The position numbers were made by a program, and so were the translations under genes. Source: an uncultured virus (IMG/VR IMGVR_UViG_3300033553_000790) (taxonomy: Duplodnaviria; Heunggongvirae; Uroviricota; Caudoviricetes). From it: a DNA stretch of 61,106 nt. The notes under the pieces are model-generated. The model ran no database searches. It was given only the letters and a program-made list of their open reading frames with translations, and was not told the origin of the DNA. Positions 27,401 to 42,402 of this stretch are shown in pieces. Location: the IMG/VR virus record IMGVR_UViG_3300033553_000790; one strand, given 5' to 3'. How positions within the stretch are numbered: position 1 is the first letter of the stretch; each line of letters opens with the position of its first letter.

Positions 27401-27919
27401 ATGTCGGGTAAAGGCTTCACCCATGAGAGCGCAAGGAATGAAAGCATAGAATGGTACACTCCTCCAGAGATTTTCGATAGTCTTAACATGGTGTTTGACT
27501 TGGACCCTTGCTCTTCCGGTAAAGGTAAAACTTTTGTTCCGGCTAAAAAATATTTAACAGTTGAGGATGACGGCTTGAACCAGGATTGGGTGGGGACAGC
27601 GTTTGTTAACCCTCCTTATGGGCCTCAGACTGAGAAGTGGATGAGGAAATTAGCTGAACATGGTGATGGTATGGGCCTTATATTCGCACGTACAGATGTG
27701 AAGTGGTTCCATGATGTAGGTATTAAAGCCGACCTGGTTTGTTTCGTTAAGGGAAGAATTAAATTCTATAAAGGCGGAATTGATAAGAGCAACATTGCGG
27801 GTACTCCGGGGGCTGGCTCTATGATTTTAGCTTACGGCGAAAAGTCAACTAAAGCTCTTCTTAAATCTGGACTAGGGGCCTGCTTCAAATATATTGAAGG
27901 GCCATCTGACGAAAGCTAA
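27401..27919 (+). CDS. Phage-type DNA N6-adenine methyltransferase (Dam family)
   Basis: EWYTP, FDLDPC, FVNPPY, ARTD motifs. Confidence 0.85.
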   Translation: MSGKGFTHESARNESIEWYTPPEIFDSLNMVFDLDPCSSGKGKTFVPAKKYLTVEDDGLNQDWVGTAFVNPPYGPQTEKWMRKLAEHGDGMGLIFARTDVKWFHDVGIKADLVCFVKGRIKFYKGGIDKSNIAGTPGAGSMILAYGEKSTKALLKSGLGACFKYIEGPSDES

Positions 27920-27921
27920 TC

Positions 27922-28683
27922 CTACTTGATGTTACGTAGAATATTGTCGTTCAGCTCACCTAACAAACTTAACTGTTCACTAGTTTTAGTTGGGAATATA
28001 CGCCCGTATTTGTTGAAATCACTATAGTCTTTAAGTAATCTTAAAGAATGGTTAATTTTCTTCTTCAACCTATTTTCAGCACCTAATAGGAAAAAAGATT
28101 TAGAAGCTGACATATACTTATGTGACATGCTTTGGGCACCTGGTGTTGAGCTAGAGATTAAAGTAGCTACCCCCTCATCAATAAAAGCCCTAGGGGAGAA
28201 CTTAGCTTCAAGAGCTTGGTGAGATCCTAAAGCTAATATATCTAAATATTGTTTTAATCCCAAGATCAGAACGTCGTCTCCGCCTTTAACGGTTTGTTTT
28301 GACTTAACAGAACCTGAAACAGTTATGTCATCTATGACTATGTACCTATCATCGTCGCTTCCGGCATGAGAGTTACCATAAAGCTGTGAACCGTGAACAG
28401 TGGCAAGAGCAACCGGCATCTCCTTATAATAAGACTTATCCGAATTCTTATTATAACTGAACCCAGGGTAATTCAACCAGTCTTTTTTCCAGTCGCCGTG
28501 TTGTATTTGTGATTGGGAGTTAGCTAACTTAGTTAGTGTAACCCCAAAGTTGTATCCGTTATCTAGAGTGTACATATCTTTGTCCAAACCACCGAACGTT
28601 GATCTGAAAATCTCGGGAATATTCTCATACCATTCGTCCGCAAGGACAGGGCCTGTTTTAGTCTTTATGTAACATGTATTCAT
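27922..28683 (-). CDS. Pol-beta superfamily nucleotidyltransferase
   Basis: HGSQLYG...SDDDRY (GS-x-DxD) motif. Confidence 0.7.
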   Translation of the reverse strand: MNTCYIKTKTGPVLADEWYENIPEIFRSTFGGLDKDMYTLDNGYNFGVTLTKLANSQSQIQHGDWKKDWLNYPGFSYNKNSDKSYYKEMPVALATVHGSQLYGNSHAGSDDDRYIVIDDITVSGSVKSKQTVKGGDDVLILGLKQYLDILALGSHQALEAKFSPRAFIDEGVATLISSSTPGAQSMSHKYMSASKSFFLLGAENRLKKKINHSLRLLKDYSDFNKYGRIFPTKTSEQLSLLGELNDNILRNIK

Positions 28684-28799
28684 AGGTCTTTAGCTAACGT
28701 AAAGATATGAAAATAAAAAAACTTGACATTTTTCTTAAAAATGTTATGATAGTGCCGATAGTTAACACATGTAGAGAGAACACATACTTAAAAAATGTT

Positions 28800-28828
28800 T
28801 TGACATTTATGAAAGTGTGTGCTATACT
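28800..28828 (+). promoter_or_regulatory. Housekeeping-sigma promoter at head of tRNA array
   Basis: TTGACA-17-TATACT with extended TG; second TTGACA-16-TATGAT at 28723-28750. Confidence 0.75.
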
Positions 28829-28905
28829 ACGAAACATAATTGAATAATAATTACATAAGAGAAAGTCTCTTAAAGAATTGAACTTGTTTTAGAAAAGGAG
28901 TGATT

Positions 28906-29043
28906 ATGAGCGCATCGTATATATGCCAGCCGAGTATTGAACTCGCACGCGCATTTACGCCCGCGCCCGCATTCTTGCATCTAGAGACCTCCGCACAATG
29001 GGGAAAAGAAAATAAGGATATTCGGAAGAGGATTATGAGTTAA
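28906..29043 (+). CDS. 45-aa leader peptide (MSASYICQPSIELARAFTPAPAFLHLETSAQWGKENKDIRKRIMS)
   Basis: AAAGGAG RBS, ATG 28906, TAA 29043; overlaps antiterminator arm. Confidence 0.65.
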   Translation: MSASYICQPSIELARAFTPAPAFLHLETSAQWGKENKDIRKRIMS

Positions 29044-29063
29044 AGCTCAAAAAGCTAAAACAT

Positions 29064-29097
29064 AAGCCTCCCGAATAAAAACCGGGAGGCTTTCTCT
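29064..29097 (+). terminator. Intrinsic terminator with competing antiterminator (attenuator)
   Basis: AAGCCTCCCG/CGGGAGGCTT stem then TCTCT; 5' arm can instead pair with 29021-29037. Confidence 0.7.
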
Positions 29098-29153
29098 ATG
29101 TAACAACAAAAAATGTAGTACAAAATATAATTAAAAAAAGATATATAAGCTAT

Positions 29154-29227
29154 AGGGGTATAGCTCAGTCCGGCCAGAGCAACGGTCTCCAAAACCGTGG
29201 TCGTGGGTTCGAATCCCTCTACCCCTG
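29154..29227 (+). tRNA. tRNA-Trp(CCA)
   Basis: Cloverleaf; ACGGT-CTCCAAA-ACCGT. Confidence 0.95.
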
Positions 29228-29438
29228 CTTTAACCTTTGGTGGTATTATTACATCATATCGGTTTTGTATATTGATAAATGAACAGTGAAATAGCCTTAG
29301 GGCAGAACTAGCAGCAGGTATGCTGTGTCATCTTGTTAGTTAGTTCTTTACAGAAAAAAATCATGAAGTGGCATGGCTATCAAGCTTGCTGCTAGTTCTG
29401 TCCTAATTACTTGTGAGCATACTATGTTCACAAGTTTT

Positions 29439-29512
29439 CGGGGTGTAGCTCAGCTTGGTAGAGCGCGCGGTTTGGGACCGTGAAGTCGCAGGTTCGAATC
29501 CTGTCACCCCGA
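29439..29512 (+). tRNA. tRNA-Pro(TGG)
   Basis: Cloverleaf; loop TTTGGGA. Confidence 0.95.
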
Positions 29513-29611
29513 CGTTATAATTATTAAAGAGCTGCCCTTTGTGCGGAGGTGGGGGTAGATGAACAATGGGGTCTTACCCAGTTACCTTATGTAAGACTAC
29601 GCGATTGTCAT

Positions 29612-29685
29612 GGCGGTGTAGTGTTAGCGGCTTAGCACATCAGTCTTCCAAACTGAGAGCACGGGTTCGAATCCCGTTACCGTCT
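29612..29685 (+). tRNA. tRNA-Gly(TCC)
   Basis: Cloverleaf; loop CTTCCAA. Confidence 0.93.
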
Positions 29686-29699
29686 CTTTAACTAAATAT

Positions 29700-29773
29700 C
29701 CGGGTGTAGCGCAGCTTGGTAGCGCATCTGCTTTGGGAGCAGAGGGCCGCAGGTTCAAATCCTGTCACCCGGA
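29700..29773 (+). tRNA. tRNA-Pro(TGG)
   Basis: Cloverleaf; loop TTTGGGA. Confidence 0.95.
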
Positions 29774-29954
29774 CGATAAAAATGAATTTTATTTTCCAAT
29801 AAAAAATAGGTCGGTATGAGGTAGGCTCTTATCTGTATCACCCCTATAAGACTGTATCCTTGGCACAGTCAGCTTGAAGTTAGCCTACAAGTGTTCATGG
29901 AAGTTCTTCTCCTTCTTCGTGATGAACAAGCCAAGATTTTTTATAAGTAAGAAT

Positions 29955-30036
29955 GCTCTTGTGGCGGAATTGGCAGACGCGCTTGATTCAAAATCAAGTA
30001 CTTTCTAGTGTGTGGGTTCAAGTCCCACCAGGAGCA
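29955..30036 (+). tRNA. tRNA-Leu(CAA)
   Basis: Type II cloverleaf; loop TTCAAAA. Confidence 0.95.
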
Positions 30037-30163
30037 CTTAGGATATTAAGTTGTTGTGACGATAAACTTAATGTTTCTAAAAGGACAGAATAGGTCACTC
30101 AATGCTGTCCTTCATGGCCCTATGGCCCAAAAGGTAGAGGCAATGTTTTTTACAAGATAAAAA

Positions 30164-30236
30164 CTGTGATTAGCTCAACTGGTAGAGCAACGGCCCTGTA
30201 AAGCTGTACGTGAAGGTTCAAATCCTTTGTCGCAGA
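30164..30236 (+). tRNA. Nested tRNA-like element 1 (8-nt loop CCTGTAAA, Tyr-GTA-like)
   Basis: CTGTGAT/GTCGCAG acceptor, GCTC/GAGC D stem, ACGGC/GCTGT stem, GAAGG-TTCAAAT-CCTTT T arm. Confidence 0.65.
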
Positions 30237-30246
30237 TATTGTAAAA

Positions 30247-30319
30247 ATATGGTTAGTTTAAAATAAAAGCGGTCGCCATTATGAGGCGGCAGATGAGAGT
30301 GAAAATCTCCCACCATATT
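30247..30319 (+). tRNA. Nested tRNA-like element 2 (TAT anticodon, atypical D and T loops)
   Basis: ATATGGT/ACCATAT acceptor, GTCGCC-ATTATGA-GGCGGC arm, GAGAG-TGAAAAT-CTCCC T-like arm. Confidence 0.55.
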
Positions 30320-30392
30320 AAATAAACAACATAGGTATTGGTTCGAATCCAATTAGGGCTACTATTGTTAACAAAACAATAACAAAATAAAG

Positions 30393-30755
30393 ATAAGAAA
30401 TCCGGGTAATCGCAACAGCTCAAAAAGTTGTTGAGGAAAGTCCGAGCTTCACAGAACAGAATAGTGGGTAACACCCACCCGTGGTGACACGCGGACAAGT
30501 GCAACAGAAAGTATACCGCCTACGCTCATGAGAATGAACCGGTGAGGCTGAAACGGTGGGGTAAGAGCCCACCAGTGTTCATAGTGATATGGGCAGCTAG
30601 GTAAACTCTATTCGAAGCAAGTCCAAAAAGAAACGTCAGTAGATTGTTCGTCAAGTTTCAGGTAGGGCGCTAGAGGTTTACGGTAACGTAAATTCGAGAT
30701 GGATGATTACCCAAATAGAAATATTTGACAAAACTCGGCTTATAGGGTATCTTAT
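30393..30755 (+). ncRNA. rnpB: RNase P RNA (bacterial type A)
   Basis: GAGGAAAGTCC, AGTGCAACAGAAA, AAACGG..GGTAAGAGC, GGTAAAC..GAAGCAA and ACAAAACTCGGCTTA conserved blocks. Confidence 0.95.
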
Positions 30756-30767
30756 ATTTTATTCAAT

Positions 30768-30841
30768 GGTGGCTGTAGCTCAATTGGTAGAGCGCCTGGT
30801 TGTGGTCCAGGATGTTGTGGGTTCGATTCCCATCAGTCACA
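30768..30841 (+). tRNA. tRNA-His(GTG)
   Basis: Cloverleaf with G-1; loop TTGTGGT. Confidence 0.93.
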
Positions 30842-30842
30842 C

Positions 30843-30927
30843 GTAACAGTAACCCGCTGGGTTTGCGGAGCGGCCTATGGAGGCCGTGGGAGTCGCACTT
30901 CCGAGGTTCAAGTCCTCGCTGATTACC
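30843..30927 (+). ncRNA. Non-canonical type II tRNA-like RNA (bulged acceptor, 8-nt loop CTATGGAG)
   Basis: GTAACAG/CTGATTAC, CCGC/GCGG, GCGGC/GCCGT, variable arm, CGAGG-TTCAAGT-CCTCG. Confidence 0.65.
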
Positions 30928-31019
30928 TACTACGCGCAGTCTGTGAGAGCTGTGGTCCGAGTTATAGAGGTTTCCAAGGAACGTTCACCAGCGTATGCGA
31001 AGAACTCCTGTCTCACAAT

Positions 31020-31093
31020 CGCTTGGTAGCTCAGTTGGTTAGAGCACTTGATTGTCAATCAAGAGGTCGCGGGTTCAAGTCCCGTCCAGGTGG
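31020..31093 (+). tRNA. tRNA-Asp(GTC)
   Basis: Cloverleaf; loop TTGTCAA. Confidence 0.9.
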
Positions 31094-31250
31094 CAAAACA
31101 TTACTGTAATATGTGGTTACAATAATGGACATTAGATAAAAAAGATATAGGGGTTTGTCGCCCTTTAGCCTCCGTTAGGGGGTTTAGTTCAAATGGTAAC
31201 ATGAGGATCACATACCTGATGTAGAGAACACTTTTATCTGAGATTTCAAT

Positions 31251-31324
31251 GGTGATTGTAGCTTAATTGGTAGAGCGCCTGGTTGTGGTCCAGGTCGTTG
31301 CGGGTTCGAGTCCCGTCAGTCACC
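31251..31324 (+). tRNA. tRNA-His(GTG)
   Basis: Cloverleaf with G-1:C73. Confidence 0.95.
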
Positions 31325-31330
31325 CTCGGA

Positions 31331-31404
31331 CGCGTGGTAGGGCAATTCGGTAGCCCGTCAGCCTCATAAGCTGAAGGTTGTAGGTTCAAATCCTACCCAC
31401 GCTA
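31331..31404 (+). tRNA. tRNA-Met(CAT), initiator-like, copy 1
   Basis: C1:T72 mismatch, loop CTCATAA. Confidence 0.9.
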
Positions 31405-31429
31405 CTATCTTTACAGTATTAAAAATAAT

Positions 31430-31503
31430 GGCCCCGTAGCTCAGTTGGTTAGAGCATCTGCTTGTCACGCAGAAGGTCGCCGGTTCAAGTCCGGTCGGGG
31501 TCG
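31430..31503 (+). tRNA. tRNA-Asp(GTC)
   Basis: Cloverleaf; loop TTGTCAC. Confidence 0.95.
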
Positions 31504-31626
31504 CACAAAAGTAATAATAAACATACAAGTCATAAGTTGACTTTCAATAAACAGTATGCTATTATCTACCTTGTAAGTGAATCACAACAGGACGCGCCTA
31601 TAAAGTTCGATAGGGAAAGGGTGCGT

Positions 31627-31700
31627 GCCCCCATAGAGTAGCGGCCTATCTCATCTGACTTTCACTCAGAAGAACGCGGGTTCGAATCCCGCTGGGGGTA
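31627..31700 (+). tRNA. tRNA-Glu(TTC)
   Basis: Cloverleaf; loop CTTTCAC. Confidence 0.95.
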
Positions 31701-31861
31701 CTCTCACACGAGAACCTTATTTTAACCTCCCCAGGTACGAAAGTAAGCAAGGAATAAAATAAGTTTGAATATTTTTGACAAATTTATTCATGTATGATAC
31801 GATATTACATGTATCAACAAATAAAAAGTGGTAAGTAGTAAAAACGAATTTATTATCCTGA

Positions 31862-31934
31862 TCCTTCATAGCTCAATTGGCAGAGCGCGGAGCTGTTAAC
31901 TCTGAGGTTCCTGGTTCGAGTCCAGGTGGGGGAG
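31862..31934 (+). tRNA. tRNA-Asn(GTT)
   Basis: Cloverleaf; loop CTGTTAA. Confidence 0.95.
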
Positions 31935-31944
31935 CGTAAATTTT

Positions 31945-32020
31945 GGCTGTGTAGCTCAGCGGTTAGAGCGTCCGCCTGTCACGTGGAAGGTCGCGGGTTC
32001 GAACCCCGTCAAGGTCGCCA
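31945..32020 (+). tRNA. tRNA-Asp(GTC), CCA encoded
   Basis: Cloverleaf; loop CTGTCAC. Confidence 0.92.
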
Positions 32021-32042
32021 AATTCGCTTAGTAAACATCTAA

Positions 32043-32116
32043 GCTCCTGTAGAGTAATCGGTTATCTCGTCACCCTCTCAAGGTGAAGGTTGCGGGTTCA
32101 AATCCCGTCAGGAGTA
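32043..32116 (+). tRNA. tRNA-Glu(CTC)
   Basis: Cloverleaf; loop CTCTCAA. Confidence 0.95.
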
Positions 32117-32137
32117 CATAAGTAAAATAAGTTCGGA

Positions 32138-32211
32138 CGCGTGGTAGAGCAATTCGGTAGCTCGTCAGCCTCATAAGCTGAAGGTTGTAGGTTCAAATCC
32201 TGCCCACGCTA
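32138..32211 (+). tRNA. tRNA-Met(CAT), initiator-like, copy 2
   Basis: C1:T72 mismatch, loop CTCATAA. Confidence 0.9.
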
Positions 32212-32348
32212 CTATAGGTAAGGTCGTTGAAAACTGCCGGAGTTGAAAAAGACTCCTTCGAGCCCCAGTTAGAGGCACCCTATGAGGTTGAGGAATTTTC
32301 GGCTCTCACGGTGAATACCAAACATGAAAGTTCACCATTATTTTCGGA

Positions 32349-32422
32349 CGCGTGGTAGGGCAATTCGGTAGCCCGTCAGCCTCATAAGCTGAAGGTTGTA
32401 GGTTCAAATCCTGCCCACGCTA
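32349..32422 (+). tRNA. tRNA-Met(CAT), initiator-like, copy 3
   Basis: C1:T72 mismatch, loop CTCATAA. Confidence 0.9.
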
Positions 32423-32480
32423 CTAAACTCCTGTTAGATGCCTAAAAAGGGGAATACAAAAAGATAGAGAAACACACCAT

Positions 32481-32565
32481 GCGGGTGTGGCGGAATTGGC
32501 AGACGCGCTAGGTTTAGGCCCTAGTGTCCGGTTAGGACGTGGAGGTTCAAATCCTCTTACCCGCA
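32481..32565 (+). tRNA. tRNA-Leu(TAG)
   Basis: Type II cloverleaf; loop TTTAGGC. Confidence 0.95.
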
Positions 32566-32674
32566 CGATTATTACGGTACGGAACCTCTCTGCGAAGAGA
32601 TAGTTCCGTACCACATAACTTCATTCGTTTGCTTGTAAAGCCTGCGTGAATGACGTATTCACCGCCGATATAAG

Positions 32675-32865
32675 TTGCACATCAGCGAACCTTACTACCG
32701 GGGAGTTAAATGAAAAAATTGCTCTTATTTGGTATTAAAACACTAAATAATACAGCATACATAAAAAAGTAAACCCTCTATAGGAGGGCTTAGGGGTATT
32801 ATAGTTATACCGCAGAAGCTGAAATTTAGTTTCTGAAACATAAAACACAGGTTTTATGGAACTAT
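32675..32865 (+). repeat. About 190-nt multi-hairpin repeat, copy 1
   Basis: Similar to 33512-33700. Confidence 0.85.
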
Positions 32866-32906
32866 TCTCGGAATGGTTTAATAAATAAACAAAAAGCCAT
32901 TCGCGT

Positions 32907-32979
32907 GGGCCTCTAGCTCAGTTGGTAGAGCAGCGGACTTTTAATCCTCGGGTCGTGGGTTCGAGCCCCACGGGGCCTA
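32907..32979 (+). tRNA. tRNA-Lys(TTT)
   Basis: Cloverleaf; loop CTTTTAA. Confidence 0.93.
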
Positions 32980-33120
32980 CATATAACCACTCGGTGTCCC
33001 TGATATCTCTTTTTGTAAGAGGTATCAACACTCCGGGTTTTCAGATATAGTACACAAAGAACATCGCTTACAGCACTGAAGGACGCTTCAGGGCTCAGAT
33101 GAAACAAAAACTATATCAAC

Positions 33121-33193
33121 GGGCCTCTAGCTCAGTTGGTAGAGCTACGGACTTTTAATCCGCAGGTCGTGGGTTCGAGCCCCACGGGGCCCA
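33121..33193 (+). tRNA. tRNA-Lys(TTT)
   Basis: Cloverleaf; loop CTTTTAA. Confidence 0.93.
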
Positions 33194-33253
33194 CTTGACA
33201 AACATACTGTTCGTATGGTATGGTTTTAACAAATAGATGAGTAATCATCATTT

Positions 33254-33326
33254 GCCTCTGTAGCTCAGTTGGTAGAGCAGACGACTCTTAATCGTCGGGT
33301 CGTGGGTTCGAGTCCCACCGGGGGTA
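33254..33326 (+). tRNA. tRNA-Lys(CTT)
   Basis: Cloverleaf; loop CTCTTAA. Confidence 0.95.
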
Positions 33327-33377
33327 CTAGTATGACGACTGATATCATATAACATCACTGTTTACTGAACAGTGAAT

Positions 33378-33450
33378 GGGCTTGTGGCGCAACTGGTAGC
33401 GCAGGACCTTTGCAAGGTCAAGGTTAGGGGTTCGAGTCCCCTCAGGTCCA
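33378..33450 (+). tRNA. tRNA-Ala(TGC)
   Basis: Cloverleaf; G3:U70; loop TTTGCAA. Confidence 0.95.
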
Positions 33451-33511
33451 CAACTATACAATAGTTAAAATCGCATGAGAAATAACTCCTCTAGTGTTCT
33501 ATTTATATAGT

Positions 33512-33700
33512 TTGCACATGGGCGAGCCTTACTAGGTGAGTTACATGAAAAACATTGCTCTTATTTGGCGCTAAAAACACTAAATAATACGGCATACATA
33601 TAAAGTAAACCCTCTATAAGGGGCTTAGAGGTATCATAGCTATACCACAGAGACTAAAATTTAGTTTCTGAAACATAAAACACAGGTTTTATGGAACTAT
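33512..33700 (+). repeat. About 190-nt multi-hairpin repeat, copy 2
   Basis: Similar to 32675-32865. Confidence 0.85.
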
Positions 33701-33863
33701 GTAGAAATATATGCCGCTGTTTTACCTGATGAAGAAAGAATTAACAGAGCGTATGAAAGTATGTCAACGGATGAGACTTTCGAATTAGGTGACTTTATCA
33801 GACAGTTGTCTGATAAATAAAAATAGTGTACTTAAGTTTAACCGCTTAGGTACATTATTTGAT

Positions 33864-33936
33864 GGGGATTTAGCTCAGTTGGTAGAGCGTTTGAATGGCA
33901 TTCAAAAGGTCGCCGGTTCGACCCCGGTAATCTCCA
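33864..33936 (+). tRNA. tRNA-Ala(GGC)
   Basis: Cloverleaf; G3:U70; loop ATGGCAT. Confidence 0.95.
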
Positions 33937-33952
33937 CTTTGTTTTTTCCTAT

Positions 33953-34023
33953 TCCCTGGTAGTGTAATGGCAGCATAACTGACTTTGGATCAGTTGGTCG
34001 AGGTTCGAACCCTCGCCGGGGAG
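33953..34023 (+). tRNA. tRNA-Gln(TTG)
   Basis: Cloverleaf; loop CTTTGGA. Confidence 0.93.
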
Positions 34024-34065
34024 CATAATATGTCGATATATACTATAACCAAAGGTTGTGAGCAT

Positions 34066-36030
34066 ATGAGAACATCCGCTAAGCTGTCTGATATGACATT
34101 AGCTAATGAGCTGCACCCAACCTTAAATGATAATAGTTTAGATATAGTGAAACTAACCGCTGGAAGTCATAAAAAACTTTGGTGGGAATGTTCAAAGAAC
34201 GAAGAGCACGAACCGTGGTTCACTTCTGTTAGGGTTAGAGTACAAGGAGCTGGTTGCCCAACTTGTGCCGGTAAGATAGTTGAGCGAACAAAATCTATAG
34301 AATACACCCACCCAGTTATAGCTGAACAGCTCGATAGTATCAACCAGGTGTCAGCTTCATCAGTTACAGCCGGTAGCAACAAAACGTATGTTTGGTCAAA
34401 CAAAGAATGCGGTCACGTTTGGGAACAAAAAGTTTATGACAGAACTAAGCAAGGGCCGGAATGCCCAGTATGTCAGTCTAACATCATAATAGAGGGAGTG
34501 AACAGCCTTTTCGATAAGCGCCCTGATTTAAAAACCTTTTGGAGTGAAAATAATATTTTAGATTTTACGAAACTAAGTTTAGGAAGCCATAAAGAAGTAG
34601 AGTGGGTTTGTTCAGAAGGCCATATTTACAAAGAGAAGGTTGTTGTTCGAGTTAAACGTAAAACATGCCCGGTTTGCGCTGGTCGCCTATTCCAGGAAGG
34701 TATTAACGATTTAGTTACCATTTACCCTTCAATAGAAGAAGTTTGGTCTGATAATAACAAGGAAACAGCTAACCAAGTTGTTTTCAACACTAAAGACGAA
34801 GCAGTATGGAATGAAAAATGTGGGCACACATATAGCGCCCCAGTTAAGATGAGAGTGAAGCATGAAGGGTGCCTGATTTGTAAAAACATTATTGTTGTCA
34901 AAGGTATCAACGATTTACTTACAACACACAGCGAGTTAGCTCAAACCTGGGGTGACAATAACGAAAAAGCTCCTTACGAAGTTTCAGCTGGTAGTGCATA
35001 CAGAGCTGAATGGGAATGCGGCAAAGGTCATGAATGGGAAGCTTTCGTTTACTCCCGTACAAGAGGTAGCGGATGTCCACAATGTAACGCCGTAAATTTC
35101 GTTTCTAAAGGTGAGCAAGAACTGTTGGATATAGTTTCTATATTAGCTGAAGGTAAAACAATAGAACAGTCGAACCGAAAAGTTCTTCAAGGCCAAGAGC
35201 TTGACATTCTCATCCCAGAAATCAACTTAGCTGTTGAGTTCAACGGTTTATACTGGCATAATGAGAATAGTGGGAAAGATAACAGATATCATCAAAATAA
35301 AATGTTGAACGCCAACAAAGCTGGTATAAAACTTATCCAAGTCTGGGAAGATGAATGGGTAGAGAAGAAAGCAATCGTAATAAGAATGTTAGCTTCAAAA
35401 ATGAACGCCAGCGTAGAAGTATTAACTGAAGCGTTAAAAAGCATAGGGACTGATGAAGAAGACATAGTGAACATGATTTCAAAACATGGAGCCAGAGAAT
35501 GCGTAACAGAAGAAATTACGTATGAAGAAGCAACCGCTTTCCTGAATGACAACCACATACAAGGTCCCGCTAAAGGAACCCTCTACACCGCGCTGAAAGA
35601 CAAACAAGGTACAGTAAGGGCCGTAATGGTTTCCCTCAAAAAAGGTGAAACCTGGGAAATAGTCAGATATGCAACATTCGGACATATACCTGGTGGTTTC
35701 ACTAAACTAATATCAAACGTTGAGAAAAAACATGGTGTTAAAAAATGGGTTACTTTCTCTGACGGGATAATATCAGAAGGGAGCCTATACAAAAACAACG
35801 GTTTCGTAAAAGATAAAACTATAGACCCGGACTACAAGTACATTGTAAACGGCGAAAGGGTGCATAAGTTTAATTACAGGTTGAAGAGATTTCGTAATGA
35901 CCCGACCCTACAATATGTTGAAGGGCACACGGAACGTCAACTGGCTGAGCTTAATGGTATCCCCCGGATATGGGATGCCGGTAAAATAAGATGGTTAAAG
36001 ATAACAGCTAAAGGAGGGCCTGATGAATAA
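34066..36030 (+). CDS. Zinc-ribbon repeat protein with Vsr/Hef-like endonuclease domain (putative homing endonuclease)
   Basis: Repeated GSxKxxWxC..H.W..R...CPxC units; ELDILIP..LAVEFNGLYWH..IQVWEDEW; NHIQG..RIWDAGK tail; start moved past tRNA-Gln. Confidence 0.8.
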   Translation: MRTSAKLSDMTLANELHPTLNDNSLDIVKLTAGSHKKLWWECSKNEEHEPWFTSVRVRVQGAGCPTCAGKIVERTKSIEYTHPVIAEQLDSINQVSASSVTAGSNKTYVWSNKECGHVWEQKVYDRTKQGPECPVCQSNIIIEGVNSLFDKRPDLKTFWSENNILDFTKLSLGSHKEVEWVCSEGHIYKEKVVVRVKRKTCPVCAGRLFQEGINDLVTIYPSIEEVWSDNNKETANQVVFNTKDEAVWNEKCGHTYSAPVKMRVKHEGCLICKNIIVVKGINDLLTTHSELAQTWGDNNEKAPYEVSAGSAYRAEWECGKGHEWEAFVYSRTRGSGCPQCNAVNFVSKGEQELLDIVSILAEGKTIEQSNRKVLQGQELDILIPEINLAVEFNGLYWHNENSGKDNRYHQNKMLNANKAGIKLIQVWEDEWVEKKAIVIRMLASKMNASVEVLTEALKSIGTDEEDIVNMISKHGARECVTEEITYEEATAFLNDNHIQGPAKGTLYTALKDKQGTVRAVMVSLKKGETWEIVRYATFGHIPGGFTKLISNVEKKHGVKKWVTFSDGIISEGSLYKNNGFVKDKTIDPDYKYIVNGERVHKFNYRLKRFRNDPTLQYVEGHTERQLAELNGIPRIWDAGKIRWLKITAKGGPDE

Positions 36031-37711
36031 TAAAGAAACGATAAATGTCACGCACTCCTACCTAGTTCAGGAATGGGTGGATGAAAAGAACATCCCGTTA
36101 TTACCTTCAGATGTTACTGCAGGTTCACATAAAAAAGTTTGGTGGAGATGCTCCGAGGGGCATGAGTGGAAAGCCCAGGTCAGTTCCCGCTGCTTATATA
36201 GTTCGGGTTGCCCTAGGTGCTCTGAGATAAAAAACTCGGTACGCACAGTTAGGAAACCCTTAGCCACCCTTTATCCTGAAATTTTTAATGAACTTAAGGA
36301 CAAGGAAATCACTGTTGTTGGTGCGGGATCACATAAAGAATTAGCATGGGTATGCGCTGAAGGCCACGAAGAAAAAGAGAAAGTTTTTGCACGGGTTAAA
36401 AGAGGCGGCTGCTCAGAGTGTAGAGGTAATGGCACATCCAAGTATAATAAAGGAGCGAAGCCCCTGCCTAAAACCATCGCGGACCAGTGGCACCCAACAA
36501 AGAATTTACCATTAACTTTAGATAAAGTTTCTTACGGTTCAACTAAAAGAGTTTGGTGGCTATGTGACAAAGGGCATGAATGGGAAGGCCGAATTAACGC
36601 AAGGAAATCTGACACTTGTTTTGAGTGCTATAAAGCAAAAACTCTAGTATTCGAAAATAGTTTCGCGAGCAGAAAAGAACAGCTTGTAGAATGGGGCGAC
36701 AATAAGCTACCAGAAGAAGTGAGTTTAGGCTCCAAGAAAAGAATAATGTGGAAATGTTCAAATAACCCTGAGCACACATGGTCAACTTTTGCTTATCAGC
36801 GTGGTAAAATAAATCCAAGCGGATGTCCGGAATGTTCGAACAACATTTTTACTTCAAAAGCAGAAGATGAGATAGCGAACCATATTCTAAGTTTAGGTGA
36901 AAACATAGAAATAATCCGTAATGATAGAAAAATTCTTGACGGAGAGTATGAGCTTGACATCTATTTACCAGAATATAAATTAGCTATTGAATATAATGGT
37001 TTGTATTGGCATAATGAAAGTCATCGGAAAGATAAAAACTATCACTATAACAAGTATAAAGCTTGCGCCGATAAAGGCATCCAACTTATCCAAATCTGGG
37101 AAGATGACTGGACAGGCAAATCTTCTATTGTAATGAAAATGATTTCGCATAAATTATCGCTATCTAAAGGCAATAAGACAATGGCTAGAAAAACAAGCAT
37201 TTCTGAAATAAGTTACAATGAAGCTTCTGCTTTCTTAGATAACAACCATATTCAGGGTGCCTCTAAGGGAAGCAAATATTGTGCTCTCGTTAATACTGAA
37301 GGTAAAAAAGTCGCAGTTTTAGTTGCCGTAAAGCGAACATCCGAAGAATGGGAGATTGCTCGTTATGCTACTGAAATAATTGTTGCTGGTGGGTTCACAA
37401 AGATGTTAAAGTATTTAGAAAGAACCAACCCGGAGATAAAAAGATGGGTTACCTTCTCAGATAACTGTATAAGCAACGGAGCCCTTTATGTGAACAATGG
37501 GTTTACTGTAGACAGACGCCTCAGATGTGACTACAGTTATGTTATCAATCAGAAGCGCATACATAAATTCAATTATAGGTTAAAGATGTTCAAAGACAAT
37601 CCTGACCTACTATTTGATGACAACTACACGGAAACCCAACTGGCTGAGCTTAACGGTATCCCCCGGATATGGGATGCCGGTAAAATAAGATGGTTAAAGA
37701 TAATACAATAA
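36023..37711 (+). CDS. Paralogous zinc-ribbon repeat Hef-like endonuclease
   Basis: Same architecture with fewer repeats; ELDIYLP..AIEYNGLYWH..IQIWEDDW. Confidence 0.8.
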   Translation: MNNKETINVTHSYLVQEWVDEKNIPLLPSDVTAGSHKKVWWRCSEGHEWKAQVSSRCLYSSGCPRCSEIKNSVRTVRKPLATLYPEIFNELKDKEITVVGAGSHKELAWVCAEGHEEKEKVFARVKRGGCSECRGNGTSKYNKGAKPLPKTIADQWHPTKNLPLTLDKVSYGSTKRVWWLCDKGHEWEGRINARKSDTCFECYKAKTLVFENSFASRKEQLVEWGDNKLPEEVSLGSKKRIMWKCSNNPEHTWSTFAYQRGKINPSGCPECSNNIFTSKAEDEIANHILSLGENIEIIRNDRKILDGEYELDIYLPEYKLAIEYNGLYWHNESHRKDKNYHYNKYKACADKGIQLIQIWEDDWTGKSSIVMKMISHKLSLSKGNKTMARKTSISEISYNEASAFLDNNHIQGASKGSKYCALVNTEGKKVAVLVAVKRTSEEWEIARYATEIIVAGGFTKMLKYLERTNPEIKRWVTFSDNCISNGALYVNNGFTVDRRLRCDYSYVINQKRIHKFNYRLKMFKDNPDLLFDDNYTETQLAELNGIPRIWDAGKIRWLKIIQ

Positions 37712-37739
37712 GTAAGCACACTGTTATCAGCTGTGCTAT

Positions 37740-37811
37740 TGCCTCATAGTGTAACTGGCAGCACTAGTGACTCTGAATCACTCAGTCTAGGTTCGAATCC
37801 TGGTGAGGCAG
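37740..37811 (+). tRNA. tRNA-Gln(CTG)
   Basis: Cloverleaf; loop CTCTGAA. Confidence 0.95.
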
Positions 37812-37877
37812 CGCATTAAAATAAATAAAACTTGACAAATATAGAATACTAGTGTAGTGTTCATATTGAAAGTTCAG

Positions 37878-37958
37878 GGGAGATTGTCCGAGCGGCCAAA
37901 GGAAGCGGTCTGTAAAACCGTTGCAACAGCTACGTGGGTTCGAATCCCTCATCTCCCA
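37878..37958 (+). tRNA. tRNA-Tyr(GTA)
   Basis: Type II cloverleaf; loop CTGTAAA. Confidence 0.93.
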
Positions 37959-38027
37959 CTTTAGTTCAAGGGTTAGTCACCCTTGGGCTAGACACTACCT
38001 TCAGGTAAGACTAACCTGCTGGCGGTG

Positions 38028-38098
38028 AGTTCAATAGCTCAATGGATAAGAGCACCACCGCCCTGGTGGGGATACCAGTTCGATTCTGGTTTGGACAC
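38028..38098 (+). ncRNA. tRNA-like RNA with 5-nt anticodon loop
   Basis: GCTC/GAGC D stem, CCACC-GCCCT-GGTGG, ACCAG-TTCGATT-CTGGT. Confidence 0.7.
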
Positions 38099-38099
38099 A

Positions 38100-38170
38100 G
38101 ATTAGTATAGCTTAACGGCAAAGCACCAGCCGACGCTGGTTAGTTTAGGTTCGAATCCTAATGCTTATCG
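38100..38170 (+). ncRNA. tRNA-like RNA with 4-nt anticodon loop
   Basis: GCTT/AAGC D stem, CCAGC-CGAC-GCTGG, TTAGG-TTCGAAT-CCTAA. Confidence 0.7.
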
Positions 38171-38282
38171 AGTGAGAACTATGTTGCTAGTATAATTTAA
38201 GCATGCGTACATAAGTAACGAAGTTCTTGCGGAGTGTGAGTGGTGCGTTGATTATGCATGGTTGACGTATTGTTTACACTAT

Positions 38283-38355
38283 GGCTCTGTAGCTCAGTTG
38301 GTAGAGCGTTCGCCTGAAGAGCGAAAGGTCACCGGTTCGATCCCGGTTGGAGCCA
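38283..38355 (+). tRNA. tRNA-Phe(GAA)
   Basis: Cloverleaf; loop CTGAAGA. Confidence 0.95.
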
Positions 38356-38370
38356 CTTCAGATCAGTTTT

Positions 38371-38871
38371 TTAGTTAATTTCCCAGAGTTCAAGGATTTT
38401 ATCCTCGTCAATGTCCCAGTTTAGAACATCAATACCACTTAGGCTAAGTTCTTTAACGGGGGAGTAGCTACGGTCTCTGAGTTGAATATTCTCAACTACT
38501 CCCGATACCAGATAATCGTCGTTACCTTCTCCCCTCATCATGACCGTTACCCATTGGCCGGTTTTCAACATCTTAGGGTCAATTTTGGTGAAGGTTTTCC
38601 CTTTAGTTGATATTAGGTTGTCTTTGTTAACTGAGGGTACTTCAGTTATTGTGCTTGTGAAATTTGTGATTAGGCAACCGGAGGGCGTGTAGGGGGTGTC
38701 ACTAACGTCTGTGGTTTGGGCAACTTTTGCTAGGAACTCTCCTGTTCTTGGTTTGAAATCATTGTCGCTTGATGTTATGATGGTTCCTTTTTCAATTACA
38801 GCGATTTCTATAGAGATTTTCTTTCCAGCGGGGATTTTCTTAGAATCATTGTAAAAATCAATTATGCTCAT
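38371..38871 (-). CDS. Hypothetical protein, paralog of 39032-39529
   Basis: Shares IEKGTI..F.PR.GE and L.STKGKTFT.ID motifs. Confidence 0.7.
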   Translation of the reverse strand: MSIIDFYNDSKKIPAGKKISIEIAVIEKGTIITSSDNDFKPRTGEFLAKVAQTTDVSDTPYTPSGCLITNFTSTITEVPSVNKDNLISTKGKTFTKIDPKMLKTGQWVTVMMRGEGNDDYLVSGVVENIQLRDRSYSPVKELSLSGIDVLNWDIDEDKILELWEIN

Positions 38872-38946
38872 CTGTTTTCTCCTGGTTTTTATAAGTTTTA
38901 TTTATCTAACGGTATTTTTGATGATACAATCCAAAGGTAAGGCTTC

Positions 38947-39021
<75 letters not shown>

Positions 39022-39031
39022 GGAAAAGTTA

Positions 39032-39529
39032 TTAACTTATAGTCCAGACATCAAGTATTGTATCTGGGTCCGTGATGTCTCGTGAGAAAATATCAATACC
39101 GCTGATAGTTAGTTGCGGGTAAAACCTATCGGGTACGAAATCCTCATCAACTGTTCCAGCGACTATACGGTAATCTTTACCTTTCATTGATTTCAGGGAG
39201 AGGGCAACCCAGTATCTTTTGTCTAACATTTCGGTATCAATATGTGTAAATGTTTTTCCTTTAGTTGATAACAAGTTCCTTTTATCTATAGATGAAACTT
39301 CTGCGATGTAAGATTCTGGACTTGTGAGTTGGAACCCAGATTCGGTTTGAGCGGGGGAACCGGGGCTTGTTGAGTAACCAATTTTCCCTATTATCTCCCC
39401 TGATCTGGGGCTGAAAGCACTATCGCTTGCTGTTACGATAGTTCCTTTTTCAATGGCGCTATTTTTTATATGTATTTTAGTTCCTACGGATACTTTCTTC
39501 AAATCGTTGTTAGCGTCACGTATGCTCAT
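39032..39529 (-). CDS. Hypothetical protein, paralog of 38371-38871
   Basis: Same length and motifs as paralog. Confidence 0.7.
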   Translation of the reverse strand: MSIRDANNDLKKVSVGTKIHIKNSAIEKGTIVTASDSAFSPRSGEIIGKIGYSTSPGSPAQTESGFQLTSPESYIAEVSSIDKRNLLSTKGKTFTHIDTEMLDKRYWVALSLKSMKGKDYRIVAGTVDEDFVPDRFYPQLTISGIDIFSRDITDPDTILDVWTIS

Positions 39530-39621
39530 TGGTTTCCCCTTAGTTTCTGTAAAGATGCTTCGTTGTGATGTTTTCCTAACGGTAAAAAGGGGAGGGTTGG
39601 AGTTAACAGTTAATTTTTCAT

Positions 39622-39705
39622 GTCATTGTGGCGGAACGGTAGACGCGCTAGCTTGAGGTGCTAGTGCCTGTAACAGGCGTGTGGGTTCGACTCCCATCAG
39701 TGACA
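39622..39705 (+). tRNA. tRNA-Leu(GAG)
   Basis: Type II cloverleaf; loop TTGAGGT. Confidence 0.95.
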
Positions 39706-39796
39706 CGGATAATAAATAATGACAGCAGTTATTTATGGCATACATTTAGTTTACTACTTGTATGTTTCTACCCTGGTCAAAACAGGTTGCTGTATT

Positions 39797-39869
39797 GCGG
39801 TGGTAGCTCAGTTGGTAGAGCATAACCTTGCCAAGGTTAAGGTCGCGGGTTCGAACCCCGTCCACCGCT
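39797..39869 (+). tRNA. tRNA-Gly(GCC)
   Basis: Cloverleaf; loop TTGCCAA. Confidence 0.95.
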
Positions 39870-39949
39870 CCTTTAGAATATTTAATGTACCTCACGTTAG
39901 GATATTCTGTAATGATTACCTGGTTAGATGACAAGGAGATTGGTTAAGG

Positions 39950-40183
39950 ATGGATAAAAATTTAATAACTTTTTGTCTTATAGAAGTTGAAACAAATTAT
40001 TCTGGGGTGGGTCGCTACACTAGGAAACATCAAGAGCTTTTTGATAAAATATTTGTTAATCTTGACCTTTCTGGTTTTAACGAATACAGGGATCATGTTA
40101 TTGAAATAGAGAACTTACTAAAGAGCCGTCAGCAGCATCAAGATGTGTCTGAAAGCATTAGCGAGTTTATGGATATAATTTAA
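39950..40183 (+). CDS. Small hypothetical protein
   Basis: 77 aa ORF with AAGGAG RBS. Confidence 0.5.
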   Translation: MDKNLITFCLIEVETNYSGVGRYTRKHQELFDKIFVNLDLSGFNEYRDHVIEIENLLKSRQQHQDVSESISEFMDII

Positions 40184-40189
40184 CACATT

Positions 40190-40260
40190 GCGGATGTAGC
40201 TCAACGGTAGAGCCTCAGTCTTCCAAACTGATGGTGCGGGTTCGATCCCCGTCATCCGCT
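40190..40260 (+). tRNA. tRNA-Gly(TCC)
   Basis: Cloverleaf; loop CTTCCAA. Confidence 0.95.
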
Positions 40261-40303
40261 CACAGTAACGGTTTCAACTAAACACGCCGTTAGATTAGGA
40301 ATT

Positions 40304-40819
40304 ATGAAAAATATAAATGATAAAGAAAAGTTAGCATATGAATTTGCTAAAAAAGCACACGGCTCACAGACACAAGGCCCAAGACCTTATATTGAACACC
40401 CTGAACAGGTTGTTGGTGTATTAAAAGAACATGGGTTCGGTAATGATGAGAACCTTATTCTCGCAGGATGGCTTCATGACACTATAGAAGATACAGATGT
40501 AACTTTTGAAATGGTAGAAGAAGCTTTCGGCACTGATGTAGCAGAGTTAGTTGACTATGTTTCCCAGCGGCCTGGCTCTAACCGTAAGGAAAGGATTAAA
40601 GCAACTTATCCTCACACAAGGAAGTCTTCCAGAGCTGTTGCTTTGAAACTATCTGACCGTATCGCTAATGTACGATACTCGGTTAACCCGAATGAAACGA
40701 ACAGGAGTTTCTTCTTAATGTATGCGAAAGAACATCCTGGTTTCACAGAAGGCCTGTTTTTACCTGGTGAGCATGTTAAACTTTGGGAGACGCTTAACTG
40801 GGAAGTAAAGAACGGATAA
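40304..40819 (+). CDS. HD-domain small alarmone hydrolase-like protein (RelA/SpoT hydrolase, Mesh1-like)
   Basis: AHGSQ, PYIEHP, AGWLHDTIEDT, KLSDRIAN motifs. Confidence 0.85.
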   Translation: MKNINDKEKLAYEFAKKAHGSQTQGPRPYIEHPEQVVGVLKEHGFGNDENLILAGWLHDTIEDTDVTFEMVEEAFGTDVAELVDYVSQRPGSNRKERIKATYPHTRKSSRAVALKLSDRIANVRYSVNPNETNRSFFLMYAKEHPGFTEGLFLPGEHVKLWETLNWEVKNG

Positions 40820-40827
40820 GAAATATT

Positions 40828-40912
40828 GTCGTTATGGCGGAATTGGCAGACGCGCTAGCCTCAGAAGTTAGTGTCCTTAACGGACGTGCGGGTTCAACTC
40901 CCGCTAACGACA
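40828..40912 (+). tRNA. tRNA-Leu(CAG)
   Basis: Type II cloverleaf; loop CTCAGAA. Confidence 0.95.
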
Positions 40913-40926
40913 CGCAAACACAATTT

Positions 40927-40999
40927 GTCCTTATAGCTCAGTGGATAGAGCAGCTGGCTTCGAACCAGCGTGTCGGGGGTTCGAATCCCTCTAAGGGCG
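40927..40999 (+). tRNA. tRNA-Arg(TCG)
   Basis: Cloverleaf; loop CTTCGAA. Confidence 0.93.
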
Positions 41000-41071
41000 C
41001 TTTACGGGCCTGTGGCAGCAGGTTTAGCGGTAGCTTACAGTTATTCTGAACAATAACTGCGGTTACTTTAT

Positions 41072-41146
41072 CGGGGCGTAGCTCAGCTTGGCCAGAGCGC
41101 GCGGTCAGGGGCCGTGAAGTCGCAGGTTCGAATCCTGTCACCCCGA
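41072..41146 (+). tRNA. tRNA-Pro(AGG), A34 and C33
   Basis: Pro body CGGGGCG/CACCCCG-A; CGCGG-TCAGGGG-CCGTG. Confidence 0.85.
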
Positions 41147-41174
41147 CTTCAAAAACAAAGTCTTATGACTTTAT

Positions 41175-41247
41175 TCTCCCATAGCTCAGTTGGCAGAGCA
41201 ATGGATTGTTAATCCATGTGTCGCTGGTTCGAGCCCAGCTGGGAGAG
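41175..41247 (+). tRNA. tRNA-Asn(GTT)
   Basis: Cloverleaf; loop TTGTTAA. Confidence 0.95.
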
Positions 41248-41340
41248 CTTTATCTTAGGATAATGTGAGAAGGTCCGTTAGAATATTACTTAGAGATTTA
41301 GAGCAAGATGTTTTATAAACTTCCAGACAAAGGATAAAAA

Positions 41341-41805
41341 TTGGCTACCAAATATTGTAATACATGCGAAAATAATAAAGATGTTAGTGAGTTCGGGAAA
41401 AACTCTTCCAAGAAAGATGGTCTACAGTCAAACTGTACATCATGTAGATCCGGTATGACTAAAGACTGGTATAAGAAGAACACTAGAAAACAAGTTGAGC
41501 GTGTAGCTAAAACAAAACAAGACATAGCTGAGATGTTGTATGCTTATAAATCAGAAAACCCTTACTGCCAGGGGCCTTGCGGGAACCAATATCCCCCTGA
41601 GGTTCTCCAGTTCGATCATATAGACCCTTCCACTAAGAAATTCAATCTTGGTGATGCCGCTAGAACTCAAGGTAGGTTAAAAGTTATAGAAGAAATGGAA
41701 AAATGTGTTCTTCTGTGCGCTAACTGCCACGCTTTACGTACCGCTAAACAATTCAACTGGTACGTTAATGACAAGAACCGCATCGTAGCGGAAATAGATA
41801 GCTAA
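41341..41805 (+). CDS. HNH endonuclease with N-terminal zinc finger
   Basis: CNTC..CTSC, LQFDHIDP, LCANCH. Confidence 0.85.
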   Translation: MATKYCNTCENNKDVSEFGKNSSKKDGLQSNCTSCRSGMTKDWYKKNTRKQVERVAKTKQDIAEMLYAYKSENPYCQGPCGNQYPPEVLQFDHIDPSTKKFNLGDAARTQGRLKVIEEMEKCVLLCANCHALRTAKQFNWYVNDKNRIVAEIDS

Positions 41806-41817
41806 AAACACGAACTT

Positions 41818-41904
41818 GGATAGTTGGCTGAGCGGCCTAAGGCGCTGGTCTTGAAAACCAGAGATGGGGAAACTCATCCGGGGGTTCAAATCCCTCACTA
41901 TCCG
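41818..41904 (+). tRNA. tRNA-Ser(TGA)
   Basis: Type II cloverleaf; loop CTTGAAA. Confidence 0.95.
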
Positions 41905-41936
41905 CCCATATAGGTTTCTGACAGAAACCTATTAAA

Positions 41937-42010
41937 GATCCTATAGCTCAGTTGGTTAGAGCGCTACCTCGACACGGTAGAGGTCACTGGTTCGAGTCCA
42001 GTTAGGATCA
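41937..42010 (+). tRNA. tRNA-Val(GAC)
   Basis: Cloverleaf; loop TCGACAC. Confidence 0.92.
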
Positions 42011-42100
42011 CTCCACATTTAAGATATATTAAGGATGGATATAAGATGAAGGATTTTAAGACATAGCCCCTTCAGTGCGAACTGAAGGAGGTGAAAACCA

Positions 42101-42280: not shown

Positions 42281-42318
42281 GACCCTTCGGTTTACGGTCA
42301 ACCATTAAAACCGTTTCA

Positions 42319-42391: not shown

Positions 42392-42402
42392 CAATAATTT
42401 TT

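Follow-up and report, generated by a model that had tools for sequence, protein, structure and literature searches.

How the expression of a long transfer RNA (tRNA) array on a mobile element is controlled is the question raised by this locus. The window, that is, the whole stretch of 61,106 nt analysed here (uncultured Caudoviricetes virus, IMG/VR record IMGVR_UViG_3300033553_000790), is part of a large mobile element, either a jumbo phage or a megaplasmid. Between 29154 and 46502, it carries 55 tRNA genes together with an RNase P RNA and a transfer-messenger RNA (tmRNA), with every RNA gene on the plus strand. Phage and plasmid tRNA arrays are viewed as a means of coping with codon mismatch and with host defences that cleave tRNAs, and to our knowledge the control of their expression has hardly been studied. 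Here, the array is preceded by a leader composed of promoters, a short open reading frame (ORF) and a terminator-like hairpin, both arms of which find competing partners upstream. We tentatively read this leader as a bmrB-type attenuator, in which transcription would depend on the ribosome and which would gate the first tRNA/RNase P unit, a reading to which we give somewhat less than an even chance. The leader is made up of the following features.

28723..28750, plus strand: promoter P1, TTGACA-16-TATGAT, TG-extended, 11 of 12 consensus matches; absent from the preliminary description of this DNA
28800..28828, plus strand: promoter P2, TTGACA-17-TATACT, TG-extended, 11 of 12 consensus matches
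28851..28871, plus strand: segment A of the 5' untranslated region (5' UTR), which adopts a small hairpin of its own or, alternatively, pairs with the terminator 3' arm and tail
28894..28900, plus strand: Shine-Dalgarno (SD) sequence AAAGGAG, 5 nt upstream of the ATG at 28906
28906..29043, plus strand: predicted leader ORF (MSASYICQPS...KRIMS), 45 codons, rich in rare codons
29019..29037, plus strand: antiterminator 5' strand (segment B), in the last 7-8 codons of the ORF, ending 4 nt before the stop codon
29061..29077, plus strand: antiterminator 3' strand, consisting of the terminator 5' arm and its flank
29064..29092, plus strand: terminator-like hairpin with a 10-bp GC-rich stem and a 9-nt loop, -17.8 kcal/mol
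29093..29105, plus strand: imperfect U-tract and distal strand UCUCUAUGUAA, pairing with the 5' UTR
29126..29131, plus strand: perfect TATAAT with a poor -35, read from the sequence and below the scan listing

The individual elements that the preliminary description had placed ahead of the first tRNA are all present: the TTGACA-17-TATACT promoter at 28800-28828 (11/12 matches and the TG extension), the AAAGGAG ribosome-binding site at 28894-28900, the ORF at 28906-29043, whose 45 codons are of 34 kinds and specify 19 amino acids, Val being the one left out, and the GC-rich terminator-like hairpin at 29064-29092, which ends 61 nt upstream of tRNA-Trp (29154). In a consensus scan of 27500-47000, P1, P2 and a site at 45955 are the top three of 52 promoter-like sites. 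The AAAGGAG motif occurs 13 times on both strands of the window and is followed by a start codon 4-10 nt downstream in six cases, comprising three long genes, the leader ORF and two short ORFs; the arrangement of AAAGGAG, 5 nt and ATG at the leader ORF is the same motif as that of the three long genes of the element. The stop codon of the ORF lies 20 nt upstream of the hairpin stem. In a custom scan, this hairpin is the strongest compact hairpin with a T-rich tail on the plus strand of 28700-47000, where the runners-up outside RNA genes reach -14.2 kcal/mol (in a coding region) and -13.6 kcal/mol (30103-30142) versus -17.8 kcal/mol, and no comparable hairpin with a T-tail was found elsewhere on the plus strand of the array. 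The sole textbook bidirectional terminator of the window, with a 19-bp stem and A- and T-tracts on either side, is located at 58907-58948 between convergent genes; canonical terminators are rare elsewhere in the window.

The end of the ORF is complementary to the terminator 5' arm, as had been proposed, and this complementarity exceeds chance. Segment 29019-29037 pairs with 29061-29077, and the resulting fold of 29015-29080 has an energy of -18.6 kcal/mol (z -4.49), a stability attained by 0/200 shuffles. Equally strong pairing with the terminator 5' arm was obtained in 8/1000 dinucleotide shuffles of the upstream 98 nt and in 6/1000 of the whole leader. When the last 11 codons were recoded synonymously, the observed -17.9 kcal/mol was reached by none of 3000 usage-weighted and by 7 of 3000 uniform recodings, so that the pairing is not a by-product of the peptide sequence. 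The rarest codon of the ORF, CGG (2.4 per 1000), sits in the antiterminator 5' strand. Terminator and antiterminator are mutually exclusive and non-random. A second long-range pairing, absent from the preliminary description, connects 28851-28871 with 29083-29105, that is, with the terminator 3' arm, the U-tract and the distal flank. The duplex between segment A and 29081-29110 has an energy of -25.4 kcal/mol, which was attained in 0/1000 cases when the 5' UTR was shuffled and in 4/1000 when the shuffling covered the whole upstream region. The minimum-energy fold of the P2 leader (28835-29153; -76.3 kcal/mol, z -4.55, 0/100 shuffles) contains the two pairings side by side. As each terminator arm thus has its own upstream competitor, the leader is predicted to be bistable. 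An ORF-internal hairpin covering the SD sequence is not unusual (z -1.45), and a designed SD-sequestering hairpin was rejected at this value.

The choice between the two folds was followed in an ensemble model, with a ribosome footprint masked at the start, in the middle or at the stop codon of the ORF and at several transcript lengths. Before the terminator 3' arm exists, the probability of the antiterminator is 0.95. From 29100 onward and with no ribosome, the double-antiterminator fold has a probability of about 0.9 (about 0.91 for the full leader), and a ribosome at the start or in the middle of the ORF leaves the antiterminator of the full leader at 0.76-0.87. A footprint at the stop codon yields a terminator probability of 0.95-1.0 at every length. 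In the model, a ribosome at the stop codon would therefore cover the antiterminator and favour the terminator, in line with the preliminary description, and the footprint there flips the ensemble from antiterminator (about 0.9) to terminator (about 1). The accompanying claim, that stalling at almost any codon allows read-through, has to be narrowed: a stall leaves the antiterminator strand fully free in codons 1-33 only. Sixteen amino acids are represented there, while Lys, Asn and Asp are confined to the masked ORF tail and Val is absent.

We propose that P1 and P2, both of the sigma-70 type, would produce a leader of ~265-345 nt with two folds. In one, the hairpin at 29064-29092 would halt RNA polymerase. 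In the other, 29019-29037 would sequester the 5' arm of the hairpin and 28851-28871 its 3' arm and U-tract, permitting read-through into tRNA-Trp, the RNase P RNA and beyond. It is most probably the ribosome that would pick the fold. A ribosome arriving at the ORF end in step with the polymerase would cover the antiterminator strand and let the terminator form; with no ribosome, or with a delay in codons 1-33, the antiterminator would form first and transcription would read through. The outcome would be a negative feedback from translation capacity on tRNA and RNase P supply. This presupposes translation of the ORF, termination at the hairpin and a decisive role of the ribosome's position, all of which we infer.

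Among known systems, the leader appears functionally closest, by analogy, to that of bmrB in the Bacillus subtilis bmrBCD operon. Both possess a promoter-proximal ORF of ~50 codons (53 in bmrB, 45 here) and an intrinsic terminator, here a putative one, with a competing antiterminator; in bmrB the ribosome acts, as it would here, as a general sensor of translation speed and not of a single amino acid, and rare leader codons raise read-through there (PMC4191407). The ORF of bmrB itself contains the terminator, and an anti-antiterminator has been predicted for it, whereas here the terminator is located 20 nt past the stop codon and an untranslated 5' UTR segment provides an extra partner. The cargo differs as well, being a drug exporter in bmrB and tRNAs plus RNase P RNA on a mobile element here, and there is no sequence similarity. 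The trpL, hisL and pheL leaders resemble the present one in their short ORF, their alternative 2:3 and 3:4 hairpins and the masking, modelled here, of segment 2 by a ribosome at the stop codon (PMC4191407). In contrast to these, the present leader features no regulatory codon runs, its segment 1 is untranslated, its product consists of RNA genes, and its predicted default without translation is read-through, not termination. Leaders of the pyrBI type, too, have a terminator shortly past the stop codon, its efficiency being set by ribosome-polymerase coupling (PMC4824070). A limited full-text search yielded no published case of leader-peptide control of tRNA arrays, which is a weak negative; among the papers listed, the only one combining a tRNA operon with a leader peptide deals with pheL, and those on tRNA arrays, apart from one on a megaplasmid (PMC10832533), are devoted to engineered arrays and to methods of genome engineering.

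The match to attenuation geometry drawn in the preliminary description stands for the start signals, the exclusive antiterminator and the modelled fold choice, and it breaks down for the regulatory codons, which in the leader ORF do not correspond to the product that would be controlled. Of the leader codons, 8/45 are read by first-unit tRNAs versus 16.4% in the genes of the element, without enrichment, and 44/45 by the whole array versus 96.5%. The amino-acid and codon diversity of the ORF, from which a general tRNA-pool sensor had been deduced, is within random expectation and, like the 8/45 codons, does not bear that deduction out: at least 19 amino acids occur in 4.4% of the 45-codon gene windows of the element and in 11% of random-composition ORFs, and at least 34 codons in 2.5% and 16%, respectively. 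What sets the ORF apart is its codon usage. Its score on a measure similar to the codon adaptation index (CAI) is 0.572, compared to 0.731 +/- 0.049 in gene windows, of which 0/5000 are as low. Scores this low were found in 3.9% of random ORFs of window composition and 0.2% of those of leader composition, in 6.0% of 383 off-frame windows and in 2.6% of 544 stop-free windows from the RNA-gene region. The log-likelihood ratio of -0.058 bits/codon is below 99.5% of in-frame gene windows and above 98% of +1-frame windows. The low CAI-like value fits either a leader deliberately poor in common codons or a frame shaped by RNA structure.

One relative was found in a sediment metagenome run from another study (X3). 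In a 2,040-nt contig of this run, positions 1216-1963 (748 letters) match 28716-29437 (722 nt) as a single alignment with 67 mismatches and 32 gap letters, corresponding to about 87-91% identity and to a net surplus of ~26 letters in the contig. The conserved block begins 7 nt upstream of the P1 -35 and spans both promoters, the leader, tRNA-Trp and the next spacer. The neighbouring protein encoded on this contig is 64% identical to that of the window, its gene aligns in fragments only at the 80% threshold, and the Dam part shows 55 mismatches in 272 nt. Further contigs of the same run match 29873-30523, 30556-30744 and 30782-31000 at 88-97%, so that the order is common through the RNase P RNA. 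Judged by sequence, the leader region in this one relative appears conserved like the RNA genes and unlike the protein genes; recent exchange of the whole RNA block could account for this conservation. The NTase-like neighbour (253 aa) has no relatives in viral or genome contig collections, nor does an aligned query of it and its 64% relative in metagenome contigs, and the ATPase at 50473-51657 has none in viral contigs. The leader hairpin pattern gave 0 matches in viral contigs, and a 22-mer of the best-conserved spacer 0 in genome contigs and 0 in viral contigs. Dam similarity led to 44 loci in metagenome contigs, with 0 tRNAs in the best 11, and RecA similarity to 54 IMG/VR loci, with the neighbour protein in 0/5 records checked and RNase P RNA in 0/4. 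None of 98 loci compared with the leader resembles it (best blastn E 0.015; nothing by nhmmer), and blastn against phages and plasmids matched tRNAs and Dam and nothing else. Of the Rfam 15 covariance models applied to 28650-29440, only tRNA passes; the best other E-value, 0.25, belongs to a chance match of a miRNA model to the neighbouring hairpin, and a T-box or other Rfam cis-regulatory family was rejected accordingly. An internal paralogue of the leader was likewise rejected, with none found within 28600-47000.

To see whether the layout recurs, 11 other array heads were surveyed, taken from IMG/VR records via RecA similarity, a choice blind to leaders, and from two cultured phages. A strong compact terminator at most 100 nt from the head tRNA is present in 2/11. 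The unrelated, high-GC IMG/VR record L099 (148.9 kb, 33 tRNAs, head tRNA-Trp) displays at 2178-2358 a TTGACA promoter, an AAGGA SD sequence, a 35-codon ORF, 19 nt, a terminator, 20 nt and tRNA-Trp. Its terminator is canonical (-23.3 kcal/mol, UUUUU), and its last ORF codons contain AAGGCGGT, a copy of the terminator 3' arm; relatives of this leader were found neither in the phage collection nor in viral contigs. In L103, a promoter and a 26-codon frame lacking an SD sequence precede a terminator of -27.4 kcal/mol located 23 nt before tRNA-Leu. Arthrobacter phage Atuin carries a leader with a terminator-like hairpin and U-tract, whose 24-nt loop is beyond the loop limit of the scan. These cases are suggestive of a leader-ORF layout that recurs at tRNA-array heads. 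As to gene order, the head tRNA-Trp(cca), Pro(tgg), Gly(tcc) of the window (29154-29686) is the same as in Atuin (L112, 1504-1926), and tRNA-Trp is also the cluster head in L099 and in Streptomyces phage JustBecause. A broader version of the proposal, in which the leader would be a general sensor of translation capacity, coupling ribosome speed to the element's own tRNAs and RNase P and switching on when defences or starvation deplete tRNAs, as one of a recurrent, convergent class of leader-ORF attenuators that includes L099, seems doubtful to us.

The downstream features that bear on the reach of such a gate are as follows.

29154..31504, plus strand: first downstream unit, with tRNA-Trp, Pro, Gly, Pro, Leu, odd tRNA-like genes, RNase P RNA, His, Asp, His, Met and Asp
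30394-30758, plus strand: class-A RNase P RNA, complete (289 bits, model 1-367), inside the tRNA array
46127-46502, plus strand: tmRNA gene (tag ANRNTFALAA) at the array end, behind tRNA-Met and its own strong promoter at 45955-45983

The consensus scan found no promoter at its threshold between the hairpin and tRNA-Trp, where the TATAAT at 29126-29131 might act as a weak promoter bypassing the gate. Strong promoters follow at 31537, 31775, 33195, 43111 and 45955, and the first unit ends before that at 31537. Internal TTGACA-type promoters had been listed in the preliminary description; those at 31537, 31775, 33195 and 43111 were recovered, and the one at 37832 has the TTGACA with a weak -10 only. 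The extended -10 TATGCTATAnT is common to the array promoters at 28800, 31537, 31775, 33195 and 43111 (also 28723 and 45955), which points to one dedicated promoter class. The gate would mainly reach from tRNA-Trp to tRNA-Asp (31504), including the RNase P RNA, and its effect beyond would be additive. The scanned ORFs of the window yielded no gene for an RNase P protein. The tRNA-Trp/tRNA-Pro spacer (29229-29438) contains a hairpin of ~110 nt (arms 29297-29316 and 29387-29406, 95% complementary) and a second hairpin. Both together have an energy of -77.3 kcal/mol (z -7.9) and lie inside the block kept in run X3; they may represent an RNase III-type processing site or a new RNA.

Several observations weigh against ribosome-dependent attenuation. 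Concerning the hairpin, the consensus terminator scanner calls it on the minus strand only (tail ATGTTTTAGC), the plus-strand tail TCTCTATG being the weaker U-tract, and the plus-strand U-tract UUUCUCUAU is imperfect. In the ensemble model, the terminator has an equilibrium probability of 1.0 in the RNA up to 29092 with no ribosome, so antitermination would have to be kinetic, by kinetic trapping as in classical attenuators. A terminating ribosome only 20 nt from the hairpin may, by analogy, itself hinder termination: a close ribosome suppresses termination in pyrBI-type leaders, which at 20 nt could oppose the proposed logic, and the efficiency of Escherichia coli terminators is 0.12-0.8 at 17-18 bp past the stop codon and maximal beyond 30 bp (PMC4824070). 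The pairing of segment A has no role in the classical ribosome model. The ORF, whose codon usage is unlike that of the element's genes, may be no more than a fortuitous frame within a structured RNA. A word-indexed search of 5.8 billion clusters gave no homologues of the leader peptide, and phmmer against 1.84 billion representatives gave just three partial matches, all of them weak, to proteins of 796-1350 aa; neither library contains the leader ORF of the window itself, which means that gene callers skipped it and makes the lack of relatives' copies uninformative. In the one metatranscriptome of the source study (X4), just diverged RNase P-like pieces at 30433-30606 were matched, and the leader is uncovered. 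The TATAAT at 29126-29131 and at least five internal promoters could bypass the gate. Finally, 9/11 of the other heads are without such a leader, mostly having a coding gene up to the tRNA or loose structures, and the antiterminator complementarity is not significant in L099, in its GC-rich context (81/1000), or in L103 (84/1000).

Part of this evidence would suit a leader that works independently of translation, either a bistable RNA governed by temperature, a protein, an RNA or folding kinetics, or a processing/stability panhandle, with the ORF being incidental. In the panhandle variant, a helix of 21 bp joining the 5' UTR to the 3' tail, serving as an RNase III-type stem or as a 5'-3' end pairing, would free or protect the leader after the RNase P cut at tRNA-Trp. 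The strongest single pairing is indeed untranslated (-25.4 kcal/mol, 0/1000 shuffles), the whole leader is unusually structured (z -4.55), the extreme hairpin of the next spacer (z -7.9) implies that structured spacers are habitual in the array, and the ORF combines non-genic codon usage with a peptide lacking a homologue. However, a strong SD sequence at ideal spacing before the longest frame of the leader, with a stop codon 4 nt past the antiterminator strand, is unlikely by chance, the ORF-internal hairpin is ordinary (z -1.45), and Rfam returns no match, T-box included (best non-tRNA E-value 0.25). We regard such a leader as unlikely. The same SD sequence and ORF, taken with the promoter and the hairpin, make up a complete gene, and small early genes are common in phages; the ORF may on this view be an ordinary small gene of 45 residues with a leaky terminator, with the array depending on read-through and on promoters of its own, and with a complementarity that is fortuitous or serves mRNA stability. 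At least five promoters of the same type stand directly before tRNAs without leaders, and the TATAAT at 29126-29131 would fit as well. An ordinary gene nevertheless leaves two independent complementarities, one per terminator arm, to be explained, along with the tuning of the ORF-tail codon choice to the pairing (0/3000). Its codon usage is worse than in all sampled gene windows (0/5000), no protein family was found for it, and its nucleotide conservation is far above that of the neighbouring protein gene, unlike a fast-evolving small protein gene; this explanation, too, we consider rather improbable.

The layout, in which a strong promoter is followed by a leader of ~265 nt and a terminator ahead of a very long array of structured RNA genes, also calls to mind factor-dependent processive antitermination. 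The comparable case is the lambda PR'-tR' leader (6S RNA), which is subject to Q antitermination; there, too, a strong promoter gives rise to a short, terminated leader upstream of a very long operon carried by a mobile element. Unlike the leader studied here, that of lambda needs a protein factor and has neither a leader ORF nor an antiterminator RNA. On this view, a constitutive promoter would yield a short terminated RNA here until a factor of the element or of the host modified RNA polymerase, which would then pass the hairpin into the 17-kb array. A gene for a sigma-factor-like protein is located nearby (9177-10430, phrog_351, E 6.8e-05). Such a mechanism explains neither the RNA complementarity nor the SD sequence and ORF, and the Rfam, Pfam and PHROG scans, which did not include a dedicated search, showed no antiterminator protein and no nut-, put- or boxA-type element. 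There is what we take to be a weak boxA-like resemblance at 28865-28877, but the boxA idea was set aside. Of the explanations considered, we hold this one to be very unlikely. Ribosome-dependent attenuation of the first tRNA/RNase P unit remains the reading that we tentatively prefer.

The surroundings of the leader are those of a mixed mobile element. Pfam and PHROG scans assign phage-like and plasmid-like genes to the window, among them HerA- and FtsK-type ATPases, Dam, DnaB, a RecA/UvsX-like recombinase, HNH endonucleases and a VanY-domain protein, and a contig of 229,613 nt is on record as carrying the neighbour protein P0001. The DnaB-type helicase (48254-50455) comprises 733 aa, and the match to its C-terminal domain is split in two stretches; it may hold an intein or another insertion. 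The tRNA array is interrupted by protein genes at 33985-37711, 40304-40819, 41341-41805 and 43777-44208. Their products include two large ORFs (DUF4379 zinc-finger repeats and an MTES_1575-like nuclease region), an HD-domain protein, an HNH endonuclease and a protein with a SocA/Panacea antitoxin domain. Among four tRNA-like sites (30164-30236, 30247-30319, 38100-38170 and 30843-30935) are genes with abnormal anticodon loops, which ARAGORN reports as '???', and the same set includes a weak tRNA match (31.3 bits) and a T-arm-like stretch called by no tool. A comparable array is known from the megaplasmid pMP7017, which carries 20 tRNAs in three transcription units and a tmRNA (PMC10832533). It thus resembles the present element as a mobile-element tRNA array with a tmRNA and several transcription units; it differs in that no leader ORF or attenuator is described for it and in that the present array contains an RNase P RNA (PMC10832533).

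If the leader acts as proposed, the tRNA supply of this element would be self-regulating, sensing the very process that is fed by its tRNAs. Leader-peptide attenuation would thereby be extended from protein operons to RNA genes.

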